DNA of 37,948 nucleotides from a virus (taxonomy: Duplodnaviria; Heunggongvirae; Uroviricota; Caudoviricetes), in IMG/VR virus record IMGVR_UViG_2939162341_000002; one strand, given 5' to 3'. The position numbers and the translations under genes were made by a program. The notes beneath the pieces are model-generated. The model did not search any database. It was not told the DNA's origin and worked only from the letters and a program-made list of their open reading frames with translations. Positions 3,629 through 26,409 of the stretch are shown piece after piece; position 1 is the stretch's first letter, and each line of letters starts with the position of its first letter.

Positions 3629-3904
3629 GTGGCTTCTGTTTCTATCAGCTGTCCCTCCTGTTCAGCTACTGACGGGGTGGTGCGTAACGGCAAAAGCACC
3701 GCCGGACATCAGCGCTATCTCTGCTCTCACTGCCGTAAAACATGGCAACTGCAGTTCACTTACACCGCTTCTCAACCCGGTACGCACCAGAAAATCATTG
3801 ATATGGCCATGAATGGCGTTGGATGCCGGGCAACTGCCCGCATTATGGGCGTTGGCCTCAACACGATTTTACGTCACTTAAAAAACTCAGGCCGCAGTCG
3901 GTAA
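3629..3904 (+). CDS. insA: IS1 InsA
   Basis: 91-aa ORF with Cys-rich N-terminus ([28 protein letters not shown]), recognised as IS1 InsA from memory. Confidence 0.93.
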
Positions 3905-4326
3905 CCTCGCGCATACAACCGGGCAGCGATGTGATTGTCTGCGCTGAAATGGACGAACAGTGGGGCTACGTAGGTGCTAAATCACGTCAGCGCTGGCTGT
4001 TTTACGCGTATGACAGGATACGGAGGACGGTTGTGGCGCACGTCTTCGGTGAACGCACTCTGGCCACACTGGAGCGTCTTATGAGCCTGCTGTCGGCCTT
4101 TGACGTGGTGATATGGATGACGGATGGCTGGCCGCTGTATGAATCCCGCCTGAAGGGAAAGCTGCACGTAATCAGCAAGCGTTACACTCAGCGCATTGAG
4201 CGACATAATCTGAATCTGAGACAACATCTGGCAAGGCTGGGACGGAAGTCACTGTCGTTCTCAAAATCGGTGGAGCTGCATGACAAAGTCATCGGGCATT
4301 ATCTGAACATAAAACACTATCAGTAA
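3823..4326 (+). CDS. insB: IS1 InsB (transposase, made as InsAB' by -1 frameshift)
   Basis: 167-aa ORF overlapping the insA 3' end in the -1 frame, characteristic of IS1. Confidence 0.93.
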
Positions 4327-4444: not shown

Positions 4445-4969
4445 TTATTGTTTAACCCATAATAGTTCATTGACATTGAATCCCAACTTTTGAGCGGTAC
4501 GCACATAGTCTGCTTTTACATTATCTGGAATAGTTTGGGTCCTTGCCAGAATCCATAGGTATTCTCTGTTCGGACCACTGACAAGAGCATACTTATACTC
4601 ATCATCCAGCTTGATTACATTATAGCCACCATAGAAGGGGCCAAAAAACGAAACTTTCAACGCTGCAGTTTTAGTATCTCCAGTAAAGTATGCTTTACCT
4701 TCGCTCTCGCTCCATTTGTTTTTCGTTGGATCGTATCCACGGTTAAGTACGCGAATCCCTCCGTCGTTCCGTTTTTCATAAGTAGCGCTGACCTGTTCCA
4801 GACCACGTTCGAACCAGTTCTCGAGGCGAGCTATTTCATACCATTTTCCGAGGTAGCGGTTGGCGTCAAAATTTGTAATCGGCTGCACACCTTTAGGTGG
4901 TGTCGGGGCCTTACATGCTATAAGAGTGAAAGAGAGTGCAATGCCAGTCAACACAGGCCATAACTTCAT
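4445..4969 (-). CDS. Outer-membrane lipoprotein of the bacterial lipocalin family (Blc-like paralog)
   Basis: 174 aa; lipoprotein signal peptide with lipobox (LIAC); lipocalin motifs shared with E. coli Blc as recalled (FDANRYLGKWYEIAR, GKAYFTG, ALKVSFFGPFYGGYNVI). Confidence 0.85.
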   Translation of the reverse strand: MKLWPVLTGIALSFTLIACKAPTPPKGVQPITNFDANRYLGKWYEIARLENWFERGLEQVSATYEKRNDGGIRVLNRGYDPTKNKWSESEGKAYFTGDTKTAALKVSFFGPFYGGYNVIKLDDEYKYALVSGPNREYLWILARTQTIPDNVKADYVRTAQKLGFNVNELLWVKQ

Positions 4970-5161
4970 AATAAATCCTGTACTTTTGATAGTTGAGAGT
5001 AAGTATGAAAGATAGATGAGTACGACCGATCACTTAAAGAACTTTCCTACTATATTAGGAATAGTCAATAACAGAAAAATTGTCAGTGATGAAGCCAGAA
5101 AGGCAATTTAGTCCGTGCACTACAAAGTTTATGTGTTAATGAATTAGTCAAGGGGGAGGAA

Positions 5162-6121
5162 ATGATAAAAAAACCTGTGATTGGGATCAGCGGTTGTTTG
5201 GGCGGTTCTGCTGTTCGTTTTGATGGTGGTCACAAAAGAGATGACTTTTTAATGGACAAATTAGTGGAATGGGTAACATTCAGACCAGTATGTCCGGAAA
5301 TGGCTATAGGGCTGCCAGTTCCGCGTCCTGCTCTACGACTTGTGCGCTCGAAGCAAGGAAATATACGGATGTGTTTCAGCCACGACCAGAATGAGGATGT
5401 GACAGAGAGAATGACAGAGTTTAGTCGTTCTTATATGGACAAATTAAAGGATGTATCGGGGTTTGTGGTTTGTGCTAAATCTCCCAGCTGTGGCATGGAG
5501 CGCGTGCGTGTCTATGGTGAAAATGGTAATCGAGGTCGTAAAGATGGAGTGGGACTATTTACGAGCACTTTGATGGAAAAGTTTTCCTGGCTACCGGTTG
5601 AAGAGGATGGGCGATTACATGATCCAGTGCTTCGTGAGAATTTTATTGAAAGAGTTTTTGCTTTGCATGAGCTCAATCACCTTTACAAGGAGAAATTATC
5701 AAGAAGAGAGTTATTAGCTTTTCATAGTCGTTATAAGCTTCAGTTGTTGGCGCATAGCCAGGCAGGCTATAAAGATATGGGACCATTTGTGGCTGCAATA
5801 CACGAGTGGGCGGACCTTGAATCATACTTTGAGGTGTATCGTGATAATCTGATGGCGATTCTCAGAAAACCAGCATCACGTAAAAATCACACGAATGTGC
5901 TGATGCATATACAGGGGTATTTTAGTAATTACTTAAGTACACGCCAGCGTAAAGAGTTGAGCGAGGTTATACTTAACTATCGCTTTGGCACATTGCCTCT
6001 TCTTGCGCCGTTGACTCTGCTGAAGCATTATCTGGGTGAGTATCCTAATGATTACTTGCTTACACAGAATTACTTCGATCCCTATCCGGAAGAACTGGCT
6101 CTAAGACTGATGGTGAATTAA
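5162..6121 (+). CDS. DUF523 (TudS-like thiouracil desulfidase fold) fused to DUF1722 (YbgA-like) protein
   Basis: N-terminal Cys motifs typical of DUF523 (GISGCLGG, VCPEMAIGLPVPRP, KSPSCG); C-terminal half resembles YbgA (NHTNVLMHIQGYF, LPLLAPLTLLKHYL); strong RBS AGGGGGAGGA 2 nt upstream of the ATG. Confidence 0.7.
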   Translation: MIKKPVIGISGCLGGSAVRFDGGHKRDDFLMDKLVEWVTFRPVCPEMAIGLPVPRPALRLVRSKQGNIRMCFSHDQNEDVTERMTEFSRSYMDKLKDVSGFVVCAKSPSCGMERVRVYGENGNRGRKDGVGLFTSTLMEKFSWLPVEEDGRLHDPVLRENFIERVFALHELNHLYKEKLSRRELLAFHSRYKLQLLAHSQAGYKDMGPFVAAIHEWADLESYFEVYRDNLMAILRKPASRKNHTNVLMHIQGYFSNYLSTRQRKELSEVILNYRFGTLPLLAPLTLLKHYLGEYPNDYLLTQNYFDPYPEELALRLMVN

Positions 6122-6527
6122 CTGTATGCGATATCATCTGAAAGTGATGAGTTCCTGTATGCAGGATATTTACAATCGTAAAAACTACGCTATGATGCTC
6201 ATAGTGTCAGTTTTTATAAAAATCCTGTTCACGCTAAAGAAAACATTGAGATGCAATTTAATGTTGGTAAACATACCAGCCCCAAACGATTTTATTCAAT
6301 CTGTTTTTATATGAAGATATTTCAAGTGAATATTAAGAGCATATAATATTATTATTGCACGCAGCTATTATAATATAACAGATTAGTTTAATGATTTGTT
6401 TTTTGTGAGTTAAACACATGGTTTTATAGTTGTGATGCAATGAGATTTTCCTTATTGTTGAACTGGCGAATATTGATTTTCCACCTATACTTACCTGGTG
6501 TAACCCCAATGATATCAGGTGGATAAT

Positions 6528-7241
6528 ATGCCATACATATGTTCTATCATTTTGGTGTTGAACTCGTTTGGTGTCCGAATTGGTAAAGAAGATATTTTGT
6601 TTAAAAAAGGAAATGCTGTCCTCATTGAATACAATTTAAAAGATCTTTTTTCGTCAAATACAGATCATCTAATGATCGTAGATGTTGAGGAGAAAACAGT
6701 TAATGATTTCTTTAAAAACTACACACTCTCACCTTTTTCTGTAAGAAGGTTTTATCCGTCATACTTGATAGTAGAATGTGAAGATTTTTCATTGTTAAAG
6801 AACTTGGTTGCATGCTTGAATTGTGATAGCAAAACCGTGGATGTAGTTAGAAATCAAATATCACTTGCATGTCTTGCTGTCTTATCTTCAGAGAAAATAG
6901 TGCAAAGTTTTTTGTTCGGAAGTCTTAATAACTTAGGTTGTAAAGTTAAGGCTATTATTCACTCGGATATCTCAGCGTCATGGAGACTTTGTGATATATC
7001 TTCAAGATTATATATGAGCGAGAGTTTGTTAAAAAGAAAATTAAAAGACGAAGGATTATCGTTTAGTAAATTAATTCTTGAAGAACGAATGATGATGGCG
7101 CAAAGATTATTGATCTACAGTAACCATACTGTCGGCAAGGTGGCGGGAATATGCGGGTATGACAATGCATCATATTTTGTAAGTGTTTTTAGAAGATATT
7201 TTGGTGTGCCTCCGCACCAATATTTATCAAGATTTTCTTAG
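6528..7241 (+). CDS. AraC/XylS-family transcriptional regulator (AppY/PatE-like), AT-rich
   Basis: C-terminal AraC-type HTH region (MAQRLLIYSNHTVGKVAGICGYDNASYFVSVFRRYFGVPPHQY); N-terminus resembles AppY-type prophage regulators; visibly AT-rich. ORF-finder start is GTG at 6519; ATG at 6528 has RBS AGGTGG. Confidence 0.8.
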   Translation: MPYICSIILVLNSFGVRIGKEDILFKKGNAVLIEYNLKDLFSSNTDHLMIVDVEEKTVNDFFKNYTLSPFSVRRFYPSYLIVECEDFSLLKNLVACLNCDSKTVDVVRNQISLACLAVLSSEKIVQSFLFGSLNNLGCKVKAIIHSDISASWRLCDISSRLYMSESLLKRKLKDEGLSFSKLILEERMMMAQRLLIYSNHTVGKVAGICGYDNASYFVSVFRRYFGVPPHQYLSRFS

Positions 7242-11172: not shown

Positions 11173-12039
11173 CTAAGCGAGGTTCTTGTTTTCAAATTGT
11201 TCCGGACTGAGGCCGCCACACCAACTGTGCCGCCGCCACCGATTGTAATCACATTCGATATAATTAAACACCGTTGCCCGCATTATTTCCCGGCTGATAA
11301 AGTGTTCTCCATGGATACATTCCACTTTCAGCGAATGAAAGAAGCTTTCCACGCAGGCATTATCGTAGCAGCAACCTTTTGCGCTCATACTTCCACGCAG
11401 ATTATGCCGCTTCAGTTGCGCCTGATAATCTGCTGAACAGTACTGGCCTCCACGGTCCGTGTGAACGATAACGTTCCGGGGCCTCTTACGCCGCCACAGC
11501 GCCATCTGCAGGGCATCGCAGGCCAGTTGCGCCGTCATGCGTGGCGACATTGACCAGCCAATAACGGCACGTGACCACAGGTCAATGACCACTGCCAGAT
11601 ACAGCCAGCCTTCATCTGTACGTAAGTACGTGATGTCTCCTGCCCACTTCTGGTTCGGGCCACTGGCGTAAAAATCCTGCTCCAACAGATTTTCTGACAC
11701 AGGCAGGCCGTGTGCGCGGTAGCTGACCGGGCTGAACTTCCGGGAGGCCTTTGCCCTCAGTCCCTGACGGCGCAGGCTTGCCGCCACGGTTTTTACGTTA
11801 AAGGGGTAACCCTGAGCACGCAGTTCATCCGTCAGGCGTGGGGAACCGTAACGCTGTTTTGACCGGGTAAAAGCCGCGAGGACAACGCTGTCGCAGTGTT
11901 GGCGGAACTGCTGACGCGTGCTTATCCTTGTCCGCCGCTGACACCACGTATACCAGCCGCTGCGGGCCACCCGGAGCACGCGGCACATTGCTTTGATGCT
12001 GAACTCAGCCTGATGTTTTTCAATAAAGACATACTTCAT
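11173..12039 (-). CDS. insF: IS3 transposase OrfB (InsF, DDE integrase domain)
   Basis: 288-aa ORF recognised as IS3 InsF; overlaps orfA in the -1 frame as in IS3-family frameshift fusions. Confidence 0.93.
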
Positions 12040-12344
12040 TTCAGGCGCTTCGCGAAGTATGTCGCGGCCTTTTGGAGGATAGCCAGCTCTTCATCCCGTT
12101 CTGCCAGCTGGCGTTTGAGACGTGCAATCTCGGTAGACATCTCCAGTTCACGTTCAGAAGACGTCTGCTGATTTTGCTGTTTACTGCGCCAGTTGTAGAG
12201 TTGTGATTCATACAGGCTGAGTTCACGGGCTGCGGCAGTAACACCGATGCGTTCAGCAAGCTTCAGGGCTTCACTGCGAAATTCAGGCGAATGCTGTTTA
12301 CGGGGTTTTTTACTGGTTGATACTGTTTTTGTCATGTGAGTCAC
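12036..12344 (-). CDS. insE: IS3 transposase OrfA (InsE, HTH)
   Basis: ~100-aa ORF recognised as IS3 InsE ([32 protein letters not shown]...). Confidence 0.93.
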
Positions 12345-12401: not shown

Positions 12402-12584
12402 AAGGCTGTCGTCCAGGTTCTGGAGACAATTCCGGATGTTCTTGAACGCGATTGCGCCCTGACTCCTCAGGCCGTTGGCGTTGTACAGCAGGCCATTGAT
12501 GACCTGCGATACACTCTTCAGGAAAAATCCTACGAGGCTTGTGCTGCTGAATTAATTCCTGATGAGGAAGGAGAGAGTCTCTAG
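12402..12584 (+). pseudogene. 3' remnant of the terminase small subunit gene, truncated by IS3
   Basis: Open frame starts exactly at the IS3 boundary with no start codon and ends in a TAATG stop/start overlap with the large terminase ATG, the usual small/large terminase coupling. Confidence 0.6.
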
Positions 12585-12592
12585 GAGGAATA

Positions 12593-14692
12593 ATGGGTTT
12601 TTCATCAGCCCGAAATTTGGGAAGGGACATATCGGCAGGATTTTCCCCACCACGTCGCATGCCGATTTCGGAGGCTGTTAAAAAATTCATGCGTGTTCCC
12701 AAGGGGGCTGGTAACTCGGTGCCATGGGATCCTGAACTGACACCCTACATCATTGAGCCCATGAACTGCCTGGCATCGCGTGAATACGATGCGGTGATTT
12801 TTGTTGGTCCTGCGCGAACAGGGAAGACCATTGGTCTGATCGATGGATGGATTGTCTATACCATCGTTTGCGATCCTTCGGACATGCTCGTTGTGCAGAT
12901 GACCGAAGATAAGGCCCGCGAGCATTCAAAAAAGCGCCTCGACAGAACGTTCAGAAGCAGTGCGGCGGTAAAGAAAAGAATGAGTCCACGTCGTAATGAC
13001 AATAATGTCCATGATAAGACGTTCAGGGATGGCTCGTTCCTTAAAATTGGTTGGCCCTCGGTCAACATTATGTCGTCGTCGGATTACCGGTTTGTCGCCT
13101 TAACCGATTACGACCGTTTTCCGGAGAATATCGACAGCGAGGGTGATGGTTTCTCCCTGGCCTCAAAACGTACCACCACATTTATGTCCGCCGGGATGAC
13201 TCTGGTGGAGAGCTCGCCGGGACGTGACATCTGCGACAGCAAATGGCGACGTAAGTCGCCTCATGAAGCGCCACCGACGACTGGTATTCTTTCCCTTTAC
13301 AATCGTGGTGACCGCCGCCGCTGGTACTGGCCATGTCCGCACTGCGGTGAATATTTTCAGCCAGCCATGGATGCCATGACCGGCTACCGTAATGAACCGG
13401 ATCCCTTTAAAGCCAGTGAGGCGGCGTATCTACTTTGCCCGCACTGCAGCGGCATTATCACTGCGGAGAAAAAGCGTGAGCTCAATAGTGCAGGAGTCTG
13501 GTTGCGTGAAGGTCAGGTCATTGATTGTAACGGCAACGTTTCCGGTGAACCGCGCCGCTCCCGTATCGCCAGTTTCTGGATGGAAGGGCCAGCTGCTGCG
13601 TATCAGACCTGGGCGCAACTGGTTTACAAATTACTGACTGCAGAACAGGAGTATGAAGCGACAGGAAGTGAAGAAACACTCAGGGCGGTTATCAACACCG
13701 ACTGGGGATTACCTTATCTTCCCCGCGCCAGCATGGAGCAACGAAAAAGTGAACTGCTTGAGCAGCGGGCAGAGCCAGTTCCTTCCCGCAGTGTGCCAGA
13801 TGGCGTTAATTTTCTTGTGGCGACAGTGGATGTGCAGGCGGGACGTCACCGCCGTTTTGTGGTTCAGGTAACGGGCTATGGCAGCCGTGGCGAACGCTGG
13901 ATTATTGATCGTTACAACATCACGCAGTCATTGCGCGGTGACAGCGACGGGGAGAGCCAGCGAATTGATCCGGCCAGCTATCCGGAAGACTGGGATGTCC
14001 TGCTGACGGATGTTTTTCATAAAAGCTGGCCGCTGGCCTCCGATCCTTCTCAACAAATGCGACTGATGGCAATGGCGGTGGACTCCGGCGGTGAAGACGG
14101 GGTCACTGATAATGCCTATAAATTCTGGCGTCGTTGCCGTCGTGATGGCCTTGGTAAACGTATTTACCTGTTTAAGGGCGACAGCATCCGGCGCGCAAAA
14201 CTGATCACCCGTACATTCCCTGATAACACCGGACGAACGGGCCGACGGGCGCAGGCCGCAGGTGATGTGCCGCTCTGGCTTCTTCAGACGGATGCACTGA
14301 AAGACCGGGTGAATAACGCGTTATGGCGTGACTCGCCAGGTCCCGGCTATGTGCATTTCCCTGACTGGCTGGGGAGCTGGTTTTACGACGAACTGACGTA
14401 TGAAGAGCGGAGCAGTGACGGGAAATGGAGTAAGCCGGGTCGCGGTGCCAACGAAGCTTTTGACCTGATGGTGTATGCCGAGGCTCTGGTCATTCTGCAT
14501 GGATACGAAAAGATCCGCTGGCCGGATGCACCGGAGTGGGCGAGCCGGGAAACCTGGCTGGAGTGTGTCCCGGACAGTACCGAACCGTCATCCTCACCGG
14601 AACCGGTATCCACGCCTGTTAAAAAACAAAAACGGAAGAAAACAGTAACTGACGATGTTAACCCCTGGCTGACTTCCGGAGGATGGTTATGA
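12593..14692 (+). CDS. Terminase large subunit (GpA family)
   Basis: 699 aa; Walker A (VGPARTGKT); zinc-finger-like CPHCGEYFQ...CPHCSG resembling lambda gpA as recalled; followed by W-like and portal genes. Confidence 0.9.
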   Translation: MGFSSARNLGRDISAGFSPPRRMPISEAVKKFMRVPKGAGNSVPWDPELTPYIIEPMNCLASREYDAVIFVGPARTGKTIGLIDGWIVYTIVCDPSDMLVVQMTEDKAREHSKKRLDRTFRSSAAVKKRMSPRRNDNNVHDKTFRDGSFLKIGWPSVNIMSSSDYRFVALTDYDRFPENIDSEGDGFSLASKRTTTFMSAGMTLVESSPGRDICDSKWRRKSPHEAPPTTGILSLYNRGDRRRWYWPCPHCGEYFQPAMDAMTGYRNEPDPFKASEAAYLLCPHCSGIITAEKKRELNSAGVWLREGQVIDCNGNVSGEPRRSRIASFWMEGPAAAYQTWAQLVYKLLTAEQEYEATGSEETLRAVINTDWGLPYLPRASMEQRKSELLEQRAEPVPSRSVPDGVNFLVATVDVQAGRHRRFVVQVTGYGSRGERWIIDRYNITQSLRGDSDGESQRIDPASYPEDWDVLLTDVFHKSWPLASDPSQQMRLMAMAVDSGGEDGVTDNAYKFWRRCRRDGLGKRIYLFKGDSIRRAKLITRTFPDNTGRTGRRAQAAGDVPLWLLQTDALKDRVNNALWRDSPGPGYVHFPDWLGSWFYDELTYEERSSDGKWSKPGRGANEAFDLMVYAEALVILHGYEKIRWPDAPEWASRETWLECVPDSTEPSSSPEPVSTPVKKQKRKKTVTDDVNPWLTSGGWL

Positions 14693-14901: not shown

Positions 14902-16409
14902 TGGCAATTCTTGATGATGTGATTGGCGTTTTTTCACCAGGATGGAAAGCGGCAAGGCTGCGTTCCCGTGCGGTGATCCAGGCTTATGAGGCCGTAAAAA
15001 CGACGCGGACACACAAAGCCCGACGGGAGAACCGAACTGCCGACCAGTTAAGCCAGTACGGGGCCGTGTCGTTACGTGAGCAGGCCCGTTACCTTGATAA
15101 CAACCACGATCTGGTTATTGGTGTATTTGACAAGCTGGAAGAACGGGTGGTGGGGAAAAACGGGATTATTGTCGAGCCACATCCGGTATTACGCAATGGG
15201 GCCATTGCCCGTGACCTGGCTGCGGAGATTCGCACCCGATGGAGTGAATGGTCTGTCAGCCCGGAAGTCACCGGGCAGTTTACCCGTCCGATGCTGGAAC
15301 GTCTGATGCTTCGTACCTGGCTGCGCGATGGTGAGGTGTTTGCCCAGATGGTTTCCGGGCGCATAAACAGCCTGACGCCTTCTGCCGGTGTTCATTTCTG
15401 GCTGGAGGCGCTCGAGCCGGACTTTATTCCCATGACCAGTGATGAGAGCAACAGGCTGAATCAGGGCGTGTTTGTTGATGACTGGGGGCGTCCCGAAAAA
15501 TATCTGGTGTATAAAAGCCGTCCCGTATCCGGACGGCAGATGGAAACCAAAGAAGTGGATGCAGAGCGAATGCTGCATCTTAAATTTGTTCGCCGTCTGC
15601 ACCAGATGCGCGGGACGTCTTTATTGTCCGGTGTGCTGATCCGCCTCAGTGCCCTGAAAGAGTATGAAGATTCTGAGCTGACTGCAGCAAGGATCGCCGC
15701 TGCTCTGGGGATGTACATCCGGAAAGGCGACGGGCAGAGCTATGAAGCGGATGGTAATGGCAGCAAGGATAAGGAACGCGAGCTTACCATTCAGCCAGGC
15801 ATTATTTACGATGATCTGAAACCCGGCGAAGAAATCGGAATGGTGAAGTCGGATCGCCCAAATCCTAACCTTGAAACTTTTCGTAATGGTCAGTTGCGTG
15901 CCGTGGCGGCGGGCAGTCGTCTGAGTTTTTCCAGTACAGCGCGCAACTATAACGGCACTTACAGCGCCCAGCGTCAGGAGCTGGTTGAATCCACTGATGG
16001 CTACCTGATCCTGCAGGACTGGTTTATTGGTGCCGTCACCCGTCCGATGTATCGTGCCTGGCTGAAACAGGCTGTGGCATCCGGTGTTATCAGGCTACCC
16101 CGCGATCTTGACCTTTCTTCACTGTATACCGCGGTGTATTCCGGACCGGTGATGCCGTGGATTGACCCTGTTAAGGAGGCTGAGGCCTGGAAAATCCAGA
16201 TTCGTGGTGGAGCGGCGACAGAATCAGACTGGGTACGTGCTGGTGGTCGTAATCCGGATGATGTCAAACGTCGGCGCAAGGCCGAAATTGATGAAAACCG
16301 CAAGCTGGATCTGGTATTTGATACCGATCCGGCCAGTGATAAAGGAGGCAGCAGTGCCGCAACGAAACGACAGGAGCCGCAGCACACCGACGACCAGTCC
16401 GAAGAATAA
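14901..16409 (+). CDS. Portal protein (lambda B family)
   Basis: 502 aa from ATG at 14901 (TGATG overlap with the W stop); acidic C-terminus; gene order terminase-W-portal-protease. Confidence 0.85.
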   Translation: MAILDDVIGVFSPGWKAARLRSRAVIQAYEAVKTTRTHKARRENRTADQLSQYGAVSLREQARYLDNNHDLVIGVFDKLEERVVGKNGIIVEPHPVLRNGAIARDLAAEIRTRWSEWSVSPEVTGQFTRPMLERLMLRTWLRDGEVFAQMVSGRINSLTPSAGVHFWLEALEPDFIPMTSDESNRLNQGVFVDDWGRPEKYLVYKSRPVSGRQMETKEVDAERMLHLKFVRRLHQMRGTSLLSGVLIRLSALKEYEDSELTAARIAAALGMYIRKGDGQSYEADGNGSKDKERELTIQPGIIYDDLKPGEEIGMVKSDRPNPNLETFRNGQLRAVAAGSRLSFSSTARNYNGTYSAQRQELVESTDGYLILQDWFIGAVTRPMYRAWLKQAVASGVIRLPRDLDLSSLYTAVYSGPVMPWIDPVKEAEAWKIQIRGGAATESDWVRAGGRNPDDVKRRRKAEIDENRKLDLVFDTDPASDKGGSSAATKRQEPQHTDDQSEE

Positions 16410-16422
16410 TTCCTGGTTCAGG

Positions 16423-18282
16423 ATGCAGGCTGGTCACCAGAGTGACGCGGATATTTATATTTATGACGAGATTGGTTTCTGGGGTGTTACAGCGAAGCAG
16501 TTTATCAGTGATCTGAATGCACTGGGCGATATCACCCACATTAATCTCCATATTAATTCACCGGGTGGCGATGTCTTTGAAGGCATCGCCATTTTTAATG
16601 CGCTGAAAACACATGGTGCGTCCATTACCGTTTATGTCGACGGTGTGGCGGCGTCAATGGCGTCGGTCATTGCGATGGTGGGAAACCCGGTCATTATGCC
16701 GGAAAACACCTTCATGATGATTCATAAACCATTTGGCTTTACGGGCGGTGATGCGGAGGACATGCGCACCTATGCCGACCTGCTCGATAAAGTTGAGGCG
16801 GTTCTGTTACCCGCTTATGCACAGAAAACCGGGAAAACCACCGATGAAATTGCTGCCATGCTGGCGGATGAGACCTGGATGTCCGGTGCCGAATGTCTGG
16901 CACATGGATTTGCTGATCAGGTGACACCAGCCGTTAAGGCAATGGCATGTATTCAGTCAAAACGTACAGAGGAATTTAAAAAGATGCCGGAATCCATTCG
17001 AAATATGATTACTCCGCCACGCAACAGTGCTCCACGCGTACAGGATGATGGACCTGCAGCCTCCCGGACGCCAGTGCAGGCAGCAGCACCCGTGGTGGAT
17101 GAAAACAGCATCCGTGCGCAGGTCCTGGCAGAGCAAAAAGCGCGTGTAAACGGTATTAATGATCTGTTTGCCATGTTTGGCGGGCGTTATCAGTCGTTGC
17201 AGGCTCAGTGTCTTGCCGATCCTGAATGTTCGCTGGAGCAGGCCCGCGAAAAGCTGTTGAACGAGATGGGGCGCGAGTCCACGCCATCCAATAAAAATAC
17301 CCCGGCTCATATTTATGCCGGTAACGGTAATTTTGTGGGGGACGGGATCCGCCAGGCGCTGATGGCGCGTGCCGGATTTGAAAAAACCGAACGTGATAAT
17401 GTCTACAACGGGATGACCCTGCGTGAATATGCCCGTATGTCACTGACTGAACGGGGTATTGGGGTTTCCAGTTATAACCCGATGCAGATGGTCGGTGCGG
17501 CGTTCACACACAGTACGTCTGACTTCGGTAATATTCTGCTGGATGTTGCGAACAAAGCCATTCTGCAGGGCTGGGAAGATGCCCCTGAAACCTATGAACA
17601 GTGGACGCGGAAAGGTCAGTTGTCTGATTTTAAAATTGCCCATCGTGTGGGTATGGGGGGCTTCAGTGCTCTGCGTCAGGTGCGTGAAGGGGCGGAATAT
17701 AAATACGTCACCACCGGAGATAAACAGGCCACTATTGCACTAGCGACCTATGGCGAGCTGTTCAGTATCACCCGTCAGGCCATTATCAATGATGATCTGA
17801 ATATGCTGACCGATGTCCCGATGAAACTGGGCCGTGCGGCGAAATCCACTATTGCCGATCTGGTTTATGCCATTCTGACGTCTAACCCGAAAATCTCCAC
17901 AGATAATGTAAGTCTGTTCGATAAAGCGAAACATGCAAACGTACTGGAGAGCGCTGCAATGGACGTGGCATCGCTGGATAAAGCCCGCCAGTTGATGCGC
18001 GTTCAGAAAGAGGGGGAGCGTCATCTGAATATTCGTCCTGCGTTCGTACTGGTACCGACGGCGATGGAGTCTGTTGCTAACCAGGTCATTCGCTCCTCAA
18101 GTGTCAAGGGGGCTGACATTAACGCCGGTATTATTAACCCGGTGAAAGATTTTGCGACCGTTATTGCAGAGCCTCGTCTTGATGATAACAGCCAGACCAC
18201 CTTCTACCTGGCTGCGTCAAAAGGCTCCGATACGATTGAAGTGGCTTATCTCAACGGTGTGGATACGCCATATATTGATTAG
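16423..18282 (+). CDS. Fused prohead protease (ClpP/S14-like) and major capsid protein
   Basis: 620 aa from ATG at 16423; N-terminal ClpP-like region (IYIYDEIGFWGV...NSPGGDVFEGIAIFNALKTHG...MASVIAMVG); long C-terminal capsid-like domain. Ends at a TAG followed by 32 in-frame codons. Confidence 0.8.
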   Translation: MQAGHQSDADIYIYDEIGFWGVTAKQFISDLNALGDITHINLHINSPGGDVFEGIAIFNALKTHGASITVYVDGVAASMASVIAMVGNPVIMPENTFMMIHKPFGFTGGDAEDMRTYADLLDKVEAVLLPAYAQKTGKTTDEIAAMLADETWMSGAECLAHGFADQVTPAVKAMACIQSKRTEEFKKMPESIRNMITPPRNSAPRVQDDGPAASRTPVQAAAPVVDENSIRAQVLAEQKARVNGINDLFAMFGGRYQSLQAQCLADPECSLEQAREKLLNEMGRESTPSNKNTPAHIYAGNGNFVGDGIRQALMARAGFEKTERDNVYNGMTLREYARMSLTERGIGVSSYNPMQMVGAAFTHSTSDFGNILLDVANKAILQGWEDAPETYEQWTRKGQLSDFKIAHRVGMGGFSALRQVREGAEYKYVTTGDKQATIALATYGELFSITRQAIINDDLNMLTDVPMKLGRAAKSTIADLVYAILTSNPKISTDNVSLFDKAKHANVLESAAMDVASLDKARQLMRVQKEGERHLNIRPAFVLVPTAMESVANQVIRSSSVKGADINAGIINPVKDFATVIAEPRLDDNSQTTFYLAASKGSDTIEVAYLNGVDTPYID

Positions 18283-18467
18283 ATGGAGGGCTTCAGTGTG
18301 GATGGCGTGACAACGAAAGTGCGTATTGACGCCGGTGTCGCGCCAGTTGATCACCGCGGTCTGGTGAAATGTACGGCGTAAACGTCGCAGACAACAACTC
18401 TGATGGCCCGTAAGGGCTTTTTTTGTACCTGAAATCAGCCCCTGAACGGGGCTGTGCGGAGACAGTT

Positions 18468-18791
18468 ATGGCAAAGAATTTTGTAGAAGAAGGAAAAACG
18501 GTGGCGATTGTTGCCAGTGCAGCCATCAGCAGCGGAGATCTGGTGCAGGTGGGCGATGTTTTTGCGGTGGCGCTGACCGATATTCCACAGGGTGAAACAG
18601 GCGACGGCATGACCGAAGGTGTGTTTATGCTGCCTAAGCTGAAAACGGATGACATGAAAACGGGTAAGAAGGTTTATCTGAAGTCCGGAAAAGTTCAGCT
18701 GACTAACAGCGGCTCTGAGCCGCTGGTCGGGGTTGTCTGGGCAGATGCTGGAACCAGTGCAGAAGAAGTGCCGGTAAAACTCAATGTCTGA
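18468..18791 (+). CDS. Small head-associated protein (DUF2190-like, possible decoration protein)
   Basis: 107 aa from ATG at 18468 with GGAG RBS; immediately downstream of the capsid gene; family assignment from memory, low certainty. Confidence 0.55.
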   Translation: MAKNFVEEGKTVAIVASAAISSGDLVQVGDVFAVALTDIPQGETGDGMTEGVFMLPKLKTDDMKTGKKVYLKSGKVQLTNSGSEPLVGVVWADAGTSAEEVPVKLNV

Positions 18792-25660: not shown

Positions 25661-26409
25661 ATCCCATGACAGAGACAGAATCAGCGATTCTGGCGCACGC
25701 CCGGCGATGTGCGCCAGCGGAGTCGTGCGGCTTCGTGGTGAGAACGCCGGAGGGGGAAAGATATTTTCCCTGCGTGAATATCTCCGGTGAGCCGGAGGAT
25801 TATTTCCGGATGGCTCCGGAGGACTGGCTGCAGGCAGAAATGCAGGGTGAGATTGTGGCGCTGGTCCACAGCCACCCCGGTGGTCTGCCCTGGCTGAGTG
25901 AGGCCGACCGGCGGCTGCAGGTGCAGAGTGATTTGCCGTGGTGACTGGTTTGCCGGGGGGCGATTCACAAGTTCCGCTGTGTGCCACATCTTTCCGGGCG
26001 GCGCTTTGAGCACGGGGTGACGGACTGTTACACGCTGTTCCGGGATGCTTACCATCTGGCGGGGATTGAGATGCCGGATTTTCATCGCGAGGATGACTGG
26101 TGGCGTAACGGTCAGAATCTCTATCTGGATAATCTGGAGGCCACAGGGCTGTATCAGGTGCCGTTGTCAGCGGCGCAGCCGGGCGATGTGCTGATGTGCT
26201 GTTTTGGTTCATCGGTGCCGAATCATGCCGCCATTTACTGTGGTGACAGCGAGCTGCTGCACCATATTCCTGAACAACTGAGCAAACGAGAGAGGTACAC
26301 CGACAAATGGCAGCGACGCACACACTCCCTCTGGCGTCACCGGGCATGGCACGCATCTGCCTTTACGGGGATTTACAACGATTTGGCCGCCGCATCGACC
26401 TTCGAGTGA
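25657..26409 (+). pseudogene. Tail tip assembly protein K (MPN/JAMM plus NlpC/P60 domains) interrupted by an in-frame TGA at 25942..25944
   Basis: The two ORF-finder pieces (25657..25944 and 25981..26409) are in the same frame. The upstream piece carries HSHPGG (JAMM); the downstream piece carries the Cys region (DCYTLF). The stop follows a Trp codon (PW*LVCRG), consistent with TGG to TGA. Confidence 0.8.

Follow-up and report, generated by a model that had tools for sequence, protein, structure and literature searches.

The capsid gene of Gifsy-2 has been described as "tripartite", with a ClpP-like protease, a scaffold and an HK97-fold capsid protein encoded in one open reading frame (ORF) (Effantin et al. 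2010, Virology 402:355, as cited in PMC8538268 and PMC12315714). This architecture, represented by the protein family NF045540, is also that of the capsid genes of mEp460, cdtI and Fels-1, and it recurs in the gene considered here. The gene lies in a stretch of 37,948 nucleotides of prophage DNA (IMG/VR record IMGVR_UViG_2939162341_000002, referred to below as the window) and is followed by the same cement/decoration gene that follows the capsid gene at Gifsy-2-type loci. The window copy differs from the Gifsy-2 type in that its frame is interrupted by a TAG, 33 codons ahead of the native stop.

Two further systems are useful for comparison. The cryptic prophage Qin of E. coli K-12 and further defective prophages of the lambdoid type at ydfJ/rspB occupy the same site and carry the same cargo and lysis genes as the window prophage, which also resembles them in decaying by IS insertions, deletions and point nonsense mutations. 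The head and tail gene set has presumably been lost from the K-12 Qin prophage, whereas the window prophage retains a near-complete one. The classical amber mutations of phage structural genes likewise convert CAG to TAG in an essential head gene, and supE returns the original Gln. Those are laboratory conditional-lethal mutations of a viable phage; in contrast, the window TAG is a natural, private mutation of a defective prophage in a host without supE. The account favored here, and very likely the correct one, is that a spontaneous CAG to TAG change in the capsid fusion gene represents neutral decay of a cryptic prophage. Table 1 presents an overview of the features on which the argument depends.

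Table 1. Features of the window relevant to the interrupted capsid gene and to the state of the prophage.
Feature	Position	Strand	Remarks
IS1	3629-4326		Adjoins a 5'-truncated exonuclease-domain gene (PGAP)
IS3	11173-12335		Adjoins a 5'-truncated DUF1441 gene (PGAP)
5'-truncated DUF1441 gene	12402-12584		Just upstream of terL (PGAP)
Whole pseudogene, ClpP-like prohead protease / scaffold / major capsid protein fusion, Gifsy-2 / mEp460 type	16354..18381	+	One in-frame TAG
Truncated frame, 642 aa from GTG start	16354..18279	+	Protease, scaffold and capsid domain minus its last 33 residues
Amber codon TAG	18280..18282	+	CAG (Gln) in relatives
Orphaned C-terminal 32 codons of the capsid domain and native TAA	18283..18381	+	Conservation in relatives
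Terminator-like hairpin with T-run	18405..18428	+	Downstream of the TAA, not of the TAG
Head decoration / cement protein (Phage_cement_2, DUF2190, PF09956), intact	18468..18791	+	ATG behind GGAG
gpK-like C40 peptidase tail gene	25666-26409		In-frame TGA at 25942-25944 (...LPW*LV...)

Around the premature stop the window reads ...GTG GAT ACG CCA TAT ATT GAT TAG ATG GAG GGC TTC..., and the frame continues beyond the TAG for 32 sense codons (MEGFSVDGVTTKVRIDAGVAPVDHRGLVKCTA) before reaching a TAA at 18379-18381. The original prediction, made from the sequence of the window alone, had described the protease-capsid ORF in just these terms and had placed the start of the next gene at 18468; both statements are borne out. 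Candidate starts for the upstream ORF are found at 16162, 16354 and 16423, all of them leading to 18282, and the annotated start in mEp460 is the ATG equivalent to 16423. Taken alone, the open run after the TAG is not significant, given that a run of 32 open codons after a stop has a probability of about 0.19 from the base composition of the window. The run goes beyond chance because the relatives have CAG here and read on, and the pattern of change across the 33 codons is that of coding sequence, as detailed below. The changed base at 18280 is the C of a GATC (Dam) site, which is lost as GATCAG becomes GATTAG. Further downstream, a rho-independent terminator is annotated in mEp460 at the position equivalent to the terminator-like hairpin.

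The predicted product retains most of what defines its family. From the amino terminus, the window product contains a ClpP-type protease domain (PF00574; residues 31-191, E = 2.5e-36) and matches NF045542 over profile positions 1-165 of 165. Against NF045540 it scores 919.1 bits, well above the curated cut-off (475 bits) and about 65 bits lower than the intact allele of a sister strain (983.7 bits), with the match reaching position 619 of 652 in the truncated product and 651 of 652 in the intact protein. The loss is concentrated in the capsid domain. The intact sister protein (WP_077628251.1), which matches PF00574 as well, covers positions 7-261 of the 262 in PF25209 (Phage_capsid_4), while the window product covers positions 7-229 only, loses about 27 bits and lacks positions 230-262, so that a complete carboxy-terminal capsid domain extending to the end of the profile is missing. 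Judged by its profile matches, the window gene is a member of the NF045540 family by descent, yet a truncated pseudogene in its present form. A sequence search of the PDB with the capsid part returned weak, partial matches to Mu gpT-like capsid proteins that leave the tail uncovered. In the RefSeq annotation by PGAP, the capsid gene is already entered as a pseudogene with an "internal stop" (EKM58_RS11555, window 16354-18381). The exact truncated capsid product was not found in an assembly index, whether begun at the GTG at 16354, read as V or as M, or at the ATG at 16423; probably this is because pseudogenes carry no product there.

What the codon is in related phages is clear from a base-by-base alignment, in which 18280-18282 is CAG (Gln) in mEp460, Fels-1, VT1-Sakai and the prophages of E. 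coli HUE1 and YY76-1. All of these relatives extend through the region with Gln at the position of the TAG. The annotated capsid coding sequences of mEp460 and Fels-1 end at the equivalent of the window TAA (18381) and not at the TAG; the TAA is shared by the other relatives compared, except that the VT1-Sakai gene stops two codons beyond it. Over the head region (17700-18500), the window is 99.4-99.8% identical in DNA to mEp460, cdtI, phi458, Ayreon, Tritos, HannyBb and others, 82% identical to the Salmonella phage Fels-1, and about 70% identical to phages of the Stx/VT1-Sakai type. All 16 close phage records, among them Ayreon, phi458 and PhiR55_1, are one base off a 71-mer of the window that includes the TAG, and in mEp460 the base at 18280 is C. 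For some of the 16 (Ayreon, phi458, PhiR55_1) a propagation host is named.

The same 71-mer can be used to ask how widespread the TAG is in the host species. With the TAG it finds a 100% match in one of 5,426 complete E. coli genomes, that of strain L37 (NZ_CP034589.1), which came from an anus swab in China. With CAG, 1,801 E. coli records match it at 100% identity, out of 1,824 that match overall. Exact 40-mer scans of metagenome and species-representative genome collections gave no match for the TAG allele, and a literature search gave none for the L37 accession. Given the CAG of the aligned relatives and of the 1,801 records, the difference comes down to a single C-to-T change, CAG to TAG, private to one strain. 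The orthologs thus have a sense codon one base away from the stop, the pattern of a simple amber mutation, and the original prediction of a CAG-to-TAG nonsense mutation that cuts off the carboxy terminus of the capsid protein agrees with the codon found in all five aligned relatives.

The sequence beyond the TAG behaves as part of the gene. All 33 codons are identical in the window (the TAG itself aside), mEp460 and HUE1. In Fels-1, the tail differs from that of the window at 21 nucleotides, which alter 19 codons, 16 of them synonymously and three non-synonymously, and the tail is still recognizable in VT1-Sakai (QQEGFTTDGIATKIRIDAGVAPLDWRGLV...). Used as a tblastn query, the final 120 residues of the intact protein matched 113 phage records with identities down to 24%; in all 113 the match covers at least 80% of the query and therefore extends past the position of the TAG. 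Gifsy-2 is among the matches, with 89% protein identity over the last 120 residues, as are phages of Pseudomonas, Ralstonia, Stenotrophomonas, Shewanella, Bordetella, Rhodobacter and Faecalibacterium. Two observations could have spoken against a nonsense mutation, namely homologs that end where the TAG stands and downstream codons that are not conserved. None of the 113 phage records ends there, and the excess of synonymous changes in Fels-1 is what is expected of conserved codons. The orphaned tail of 33 residues is conserved coding sequence within the capsid domain profiles, a continuation that the orthologs share down to the same native stop.

A look-up of the 32-residue orphan ORF as a product returned 24 contigs, each of which starts at the equivalent of window positions 18281-18283. 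These are contig-edge fragments that carry no upstream sequence, and as evidence on TAG or CAG they are uninformative. The public contigs concerned (48 index blocks) begin at most three bases from the codon that follows the TAG/CAG, probably because looking up an exact product selects for gene fragments at contig edges, although the starts could also mark a branch point in the assembly graph between alleles of co-resident prophages.

A stop codon within an otherwise intact frame raises the possibility that it is read through, by a suppressor tRNA or by programmed recoding, and that full-length capsid protein is made. The supE allele is glnV with a CUA anticodon and inserts Gln at UAG, so suppression of this type would give back exactly the ancestral residue, and supE is present in 155 complete E. 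coli genomes. Among the 40 matches listed, every named strain background is K-12 or another laboratory derivative (C600, DH5alpha, DH1, J53). In L37, the tRNA cluster glnX-glnV-metU-glnW-glnU-leuW-metT was located, and glnX and glnV have the wild-type anticodon CTG while glnU and glnW have TTG; no amber suppressor is present in these four genes. Host supE was rejected on these grounds. A phage-borne suppressor was rejected as well, the window containing no tRNA gene.

Programmed readthrough can be excluded because the stop is not conserved. A recoded site should be conserved among relatives together with its extension, but the position is CAG in 1,801 records and in the phages compared base by base, and the window 71-mer with its stop occurs in one of 1,824 E. 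coli records and in none of the 16 close phages. The prophage, moreover, would make no particles regardless of how the codon is read. It had been proposed that an amber-suppressor host would restore the capsid protein, given that supE inserts Gln. As a principle this holds, but nothing follows from it in the present case, given the CTG anticodons of L37 glnV and glnX, the lack of a tRNA gene in the window and the lesions elsewhere in the prophage. Suppression would restore a protein, not a phage, because several of those other lesions are beyond repair by any suppressor. Readthrough of the TAG into a full-length capsid protein is accordingly regarded as very improbable.

Turning to the prophage as a whole, it occupies the Qin site, with rspB (of rspA-rspB) on one side and a ydfJ truncated at its 5' end on the other. 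PGAP names a set of Qin-type cargo and lysis genes in it (essD, rrrQ, rzpQ, cspI, ydfK, pinQ, gnsB and ynfN), and int and xis are present. Between xis and the lysis genes, the PGAP annotation shows no repressor/immunity, replication or antiterminator (Q) genes. The early-region place beside the IS1 (4445-7241) is occupied by non-phage-like cargo comprising lipocalin family, YbgA family and HTH-domain proteins; lysis genes come next, followed by cold-shock and small-protein cargo. In the morphogenetic part, the IS3 and the shortened DUF1441 gene precede terL, the gpK-like gene is interrupted by its own stop, and the tail-fiber assembly gene (tfa) is truncated. The annotations of L37, HUE1 and YY76-1 agree in presenting a defective lambdoid prophage at the Qin site. 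Going by this gene content, the window prophage is grossly defective and should be unable to produce particles.

The order of these events can be read from two sister strains. The prophage is present at this site in HUE1 and YY76-1 as well, and the lesions that these copies have in common with the window are the IS1 and IS3, the shortened DUF1441 gene, the stop in gpK (flagged by PGAP as an "internal stop" in both) and the truncated tfa. In both, the capsid gene is intact, with CAG (WP_077628251.1). Because the sister strains have these lesions yet keep CAG, the capsid TAG is dated after both the IS insertions and the stop in gpK. An alignment of the window with HUE1 over 33.3 kb contains three substitutions: the C-to-T change in the capsid gene, a synonymous site in terL, and a nonsense mutation in the HUE1 terL, where a TGG codon equivalent to window position 13330 has become TGA in that strain alone. 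About a dozen further strains are equally near-identical over a structural region of 14.4 kb. On this comparison, the TAG is best understood as having arisen recently, and only in the L37 lineage, in a prophage that was already dead. The independent nonsense hits in the two sister copies, one in the capsid gene of L37 and one in the large terminase gene of HUE1, would then show the same process of decay at work.

Nonsense mutations being two of the few private substitutions in this lineage, one might suppose that the truncation was selected, either because a capsid/protease product that was toxic or costly was thereby silenced, or because the protease-scaffold part had been domesticated for a host function. 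The numbers are tiny, though, and are no more than relaxed constraint would produce. The mutation is confined to a single genome, being neither recurrent nor clade-wide. It removes the last 33 residues alone and leaves protease and scaffold untouched, which would not serve silencing, and expression of the late operon is without support, as no antiterminator or immunity region is annotated. Selection for the truncation is thus hardly credible. The same low standing applies to the broader proposition that the TAG is functional in one of two ways, through an unrecognized suppressor tRNA encoded elsewhere or through a truncated protein kept for a role beneficial to the host, which is considered exceedingly unlikely.

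A more mundane alternative is that the base at 18280 is in truth C, that the T is an error of sequencing or assembly, and that living cells of the strain have an uninterrupted gene. The TAG is known from one strain only, and its reality rests there; it appears in a single record and is absent from the other collections searched. That RefSeq record of L37 has flaws of the long-read type in its repeats, namely indels in T-runs of the IS3 and transposase genes of the IS3 and IS5 flagged as frameshifted, and the IS3 frameshift is seen in the L37 record only and is not common to the sister strains. In addition, the changed base lies within a Dam site, and in some long-read data consensus errors are known to concentrate at methylation motifs. 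Against this, the change affects single-copy sequence, with one occurrence in the L37 record, and it is a substitution, unlike the homopolymer indels in the repeats.

Aligned end to end with the L37 record, the window differs from it solely by two compensating single-T indels in the IS3, at window positions 11749 and 11790, 40 bp apart, and at both it agrees with the intact IS3 of HUE1. Its source thus seems to be an assembly or version other than NZ_CP034589.1. That the window departs from the RefSeq record at these two indels but shares the T at 18280 suggests a second assembly or a corrected version in which the T was retained. One or two private substitutions per 33 kb are also at the level of divergence of the sister strains. 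Error at this base is consequently considered unlikely, if less so than readthrough or selection, and even were it the case, the verdict of an ordinary defective prophage stands.

Returning to neutral decay, the most likely sequence of events is as follows. In E. coli L37 or a near-identical strain, a lambdoid prophage of the Gifsy-2 / mEp460 type at rspB/ydfJ would have lost its viability first. A C-to-T transition at 18280 would later have turned the Gln codon CAG into the amber codon TAG, as one step of neutral decay. Translation now halts 33 residues early and the conserved end of the capsid domain is gone; given the conservation of that end, the truncated product can very probably no longer form a capsid. 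In a prophage that had died beforehand, the mutation would for that reason have been without consequence and unselected.

The lesion is of a known kind, and the public RefSeq annotation already records the gene as a pseudogene. Its one practical use is as a marker, the T at 18280 being confined to L37, or to its immediate clone, within the 5,426 complete E. coli genomes. The importance of the finding is very small, as it amounts to a textbook example of how a cryptic prophage decays by point mutation.
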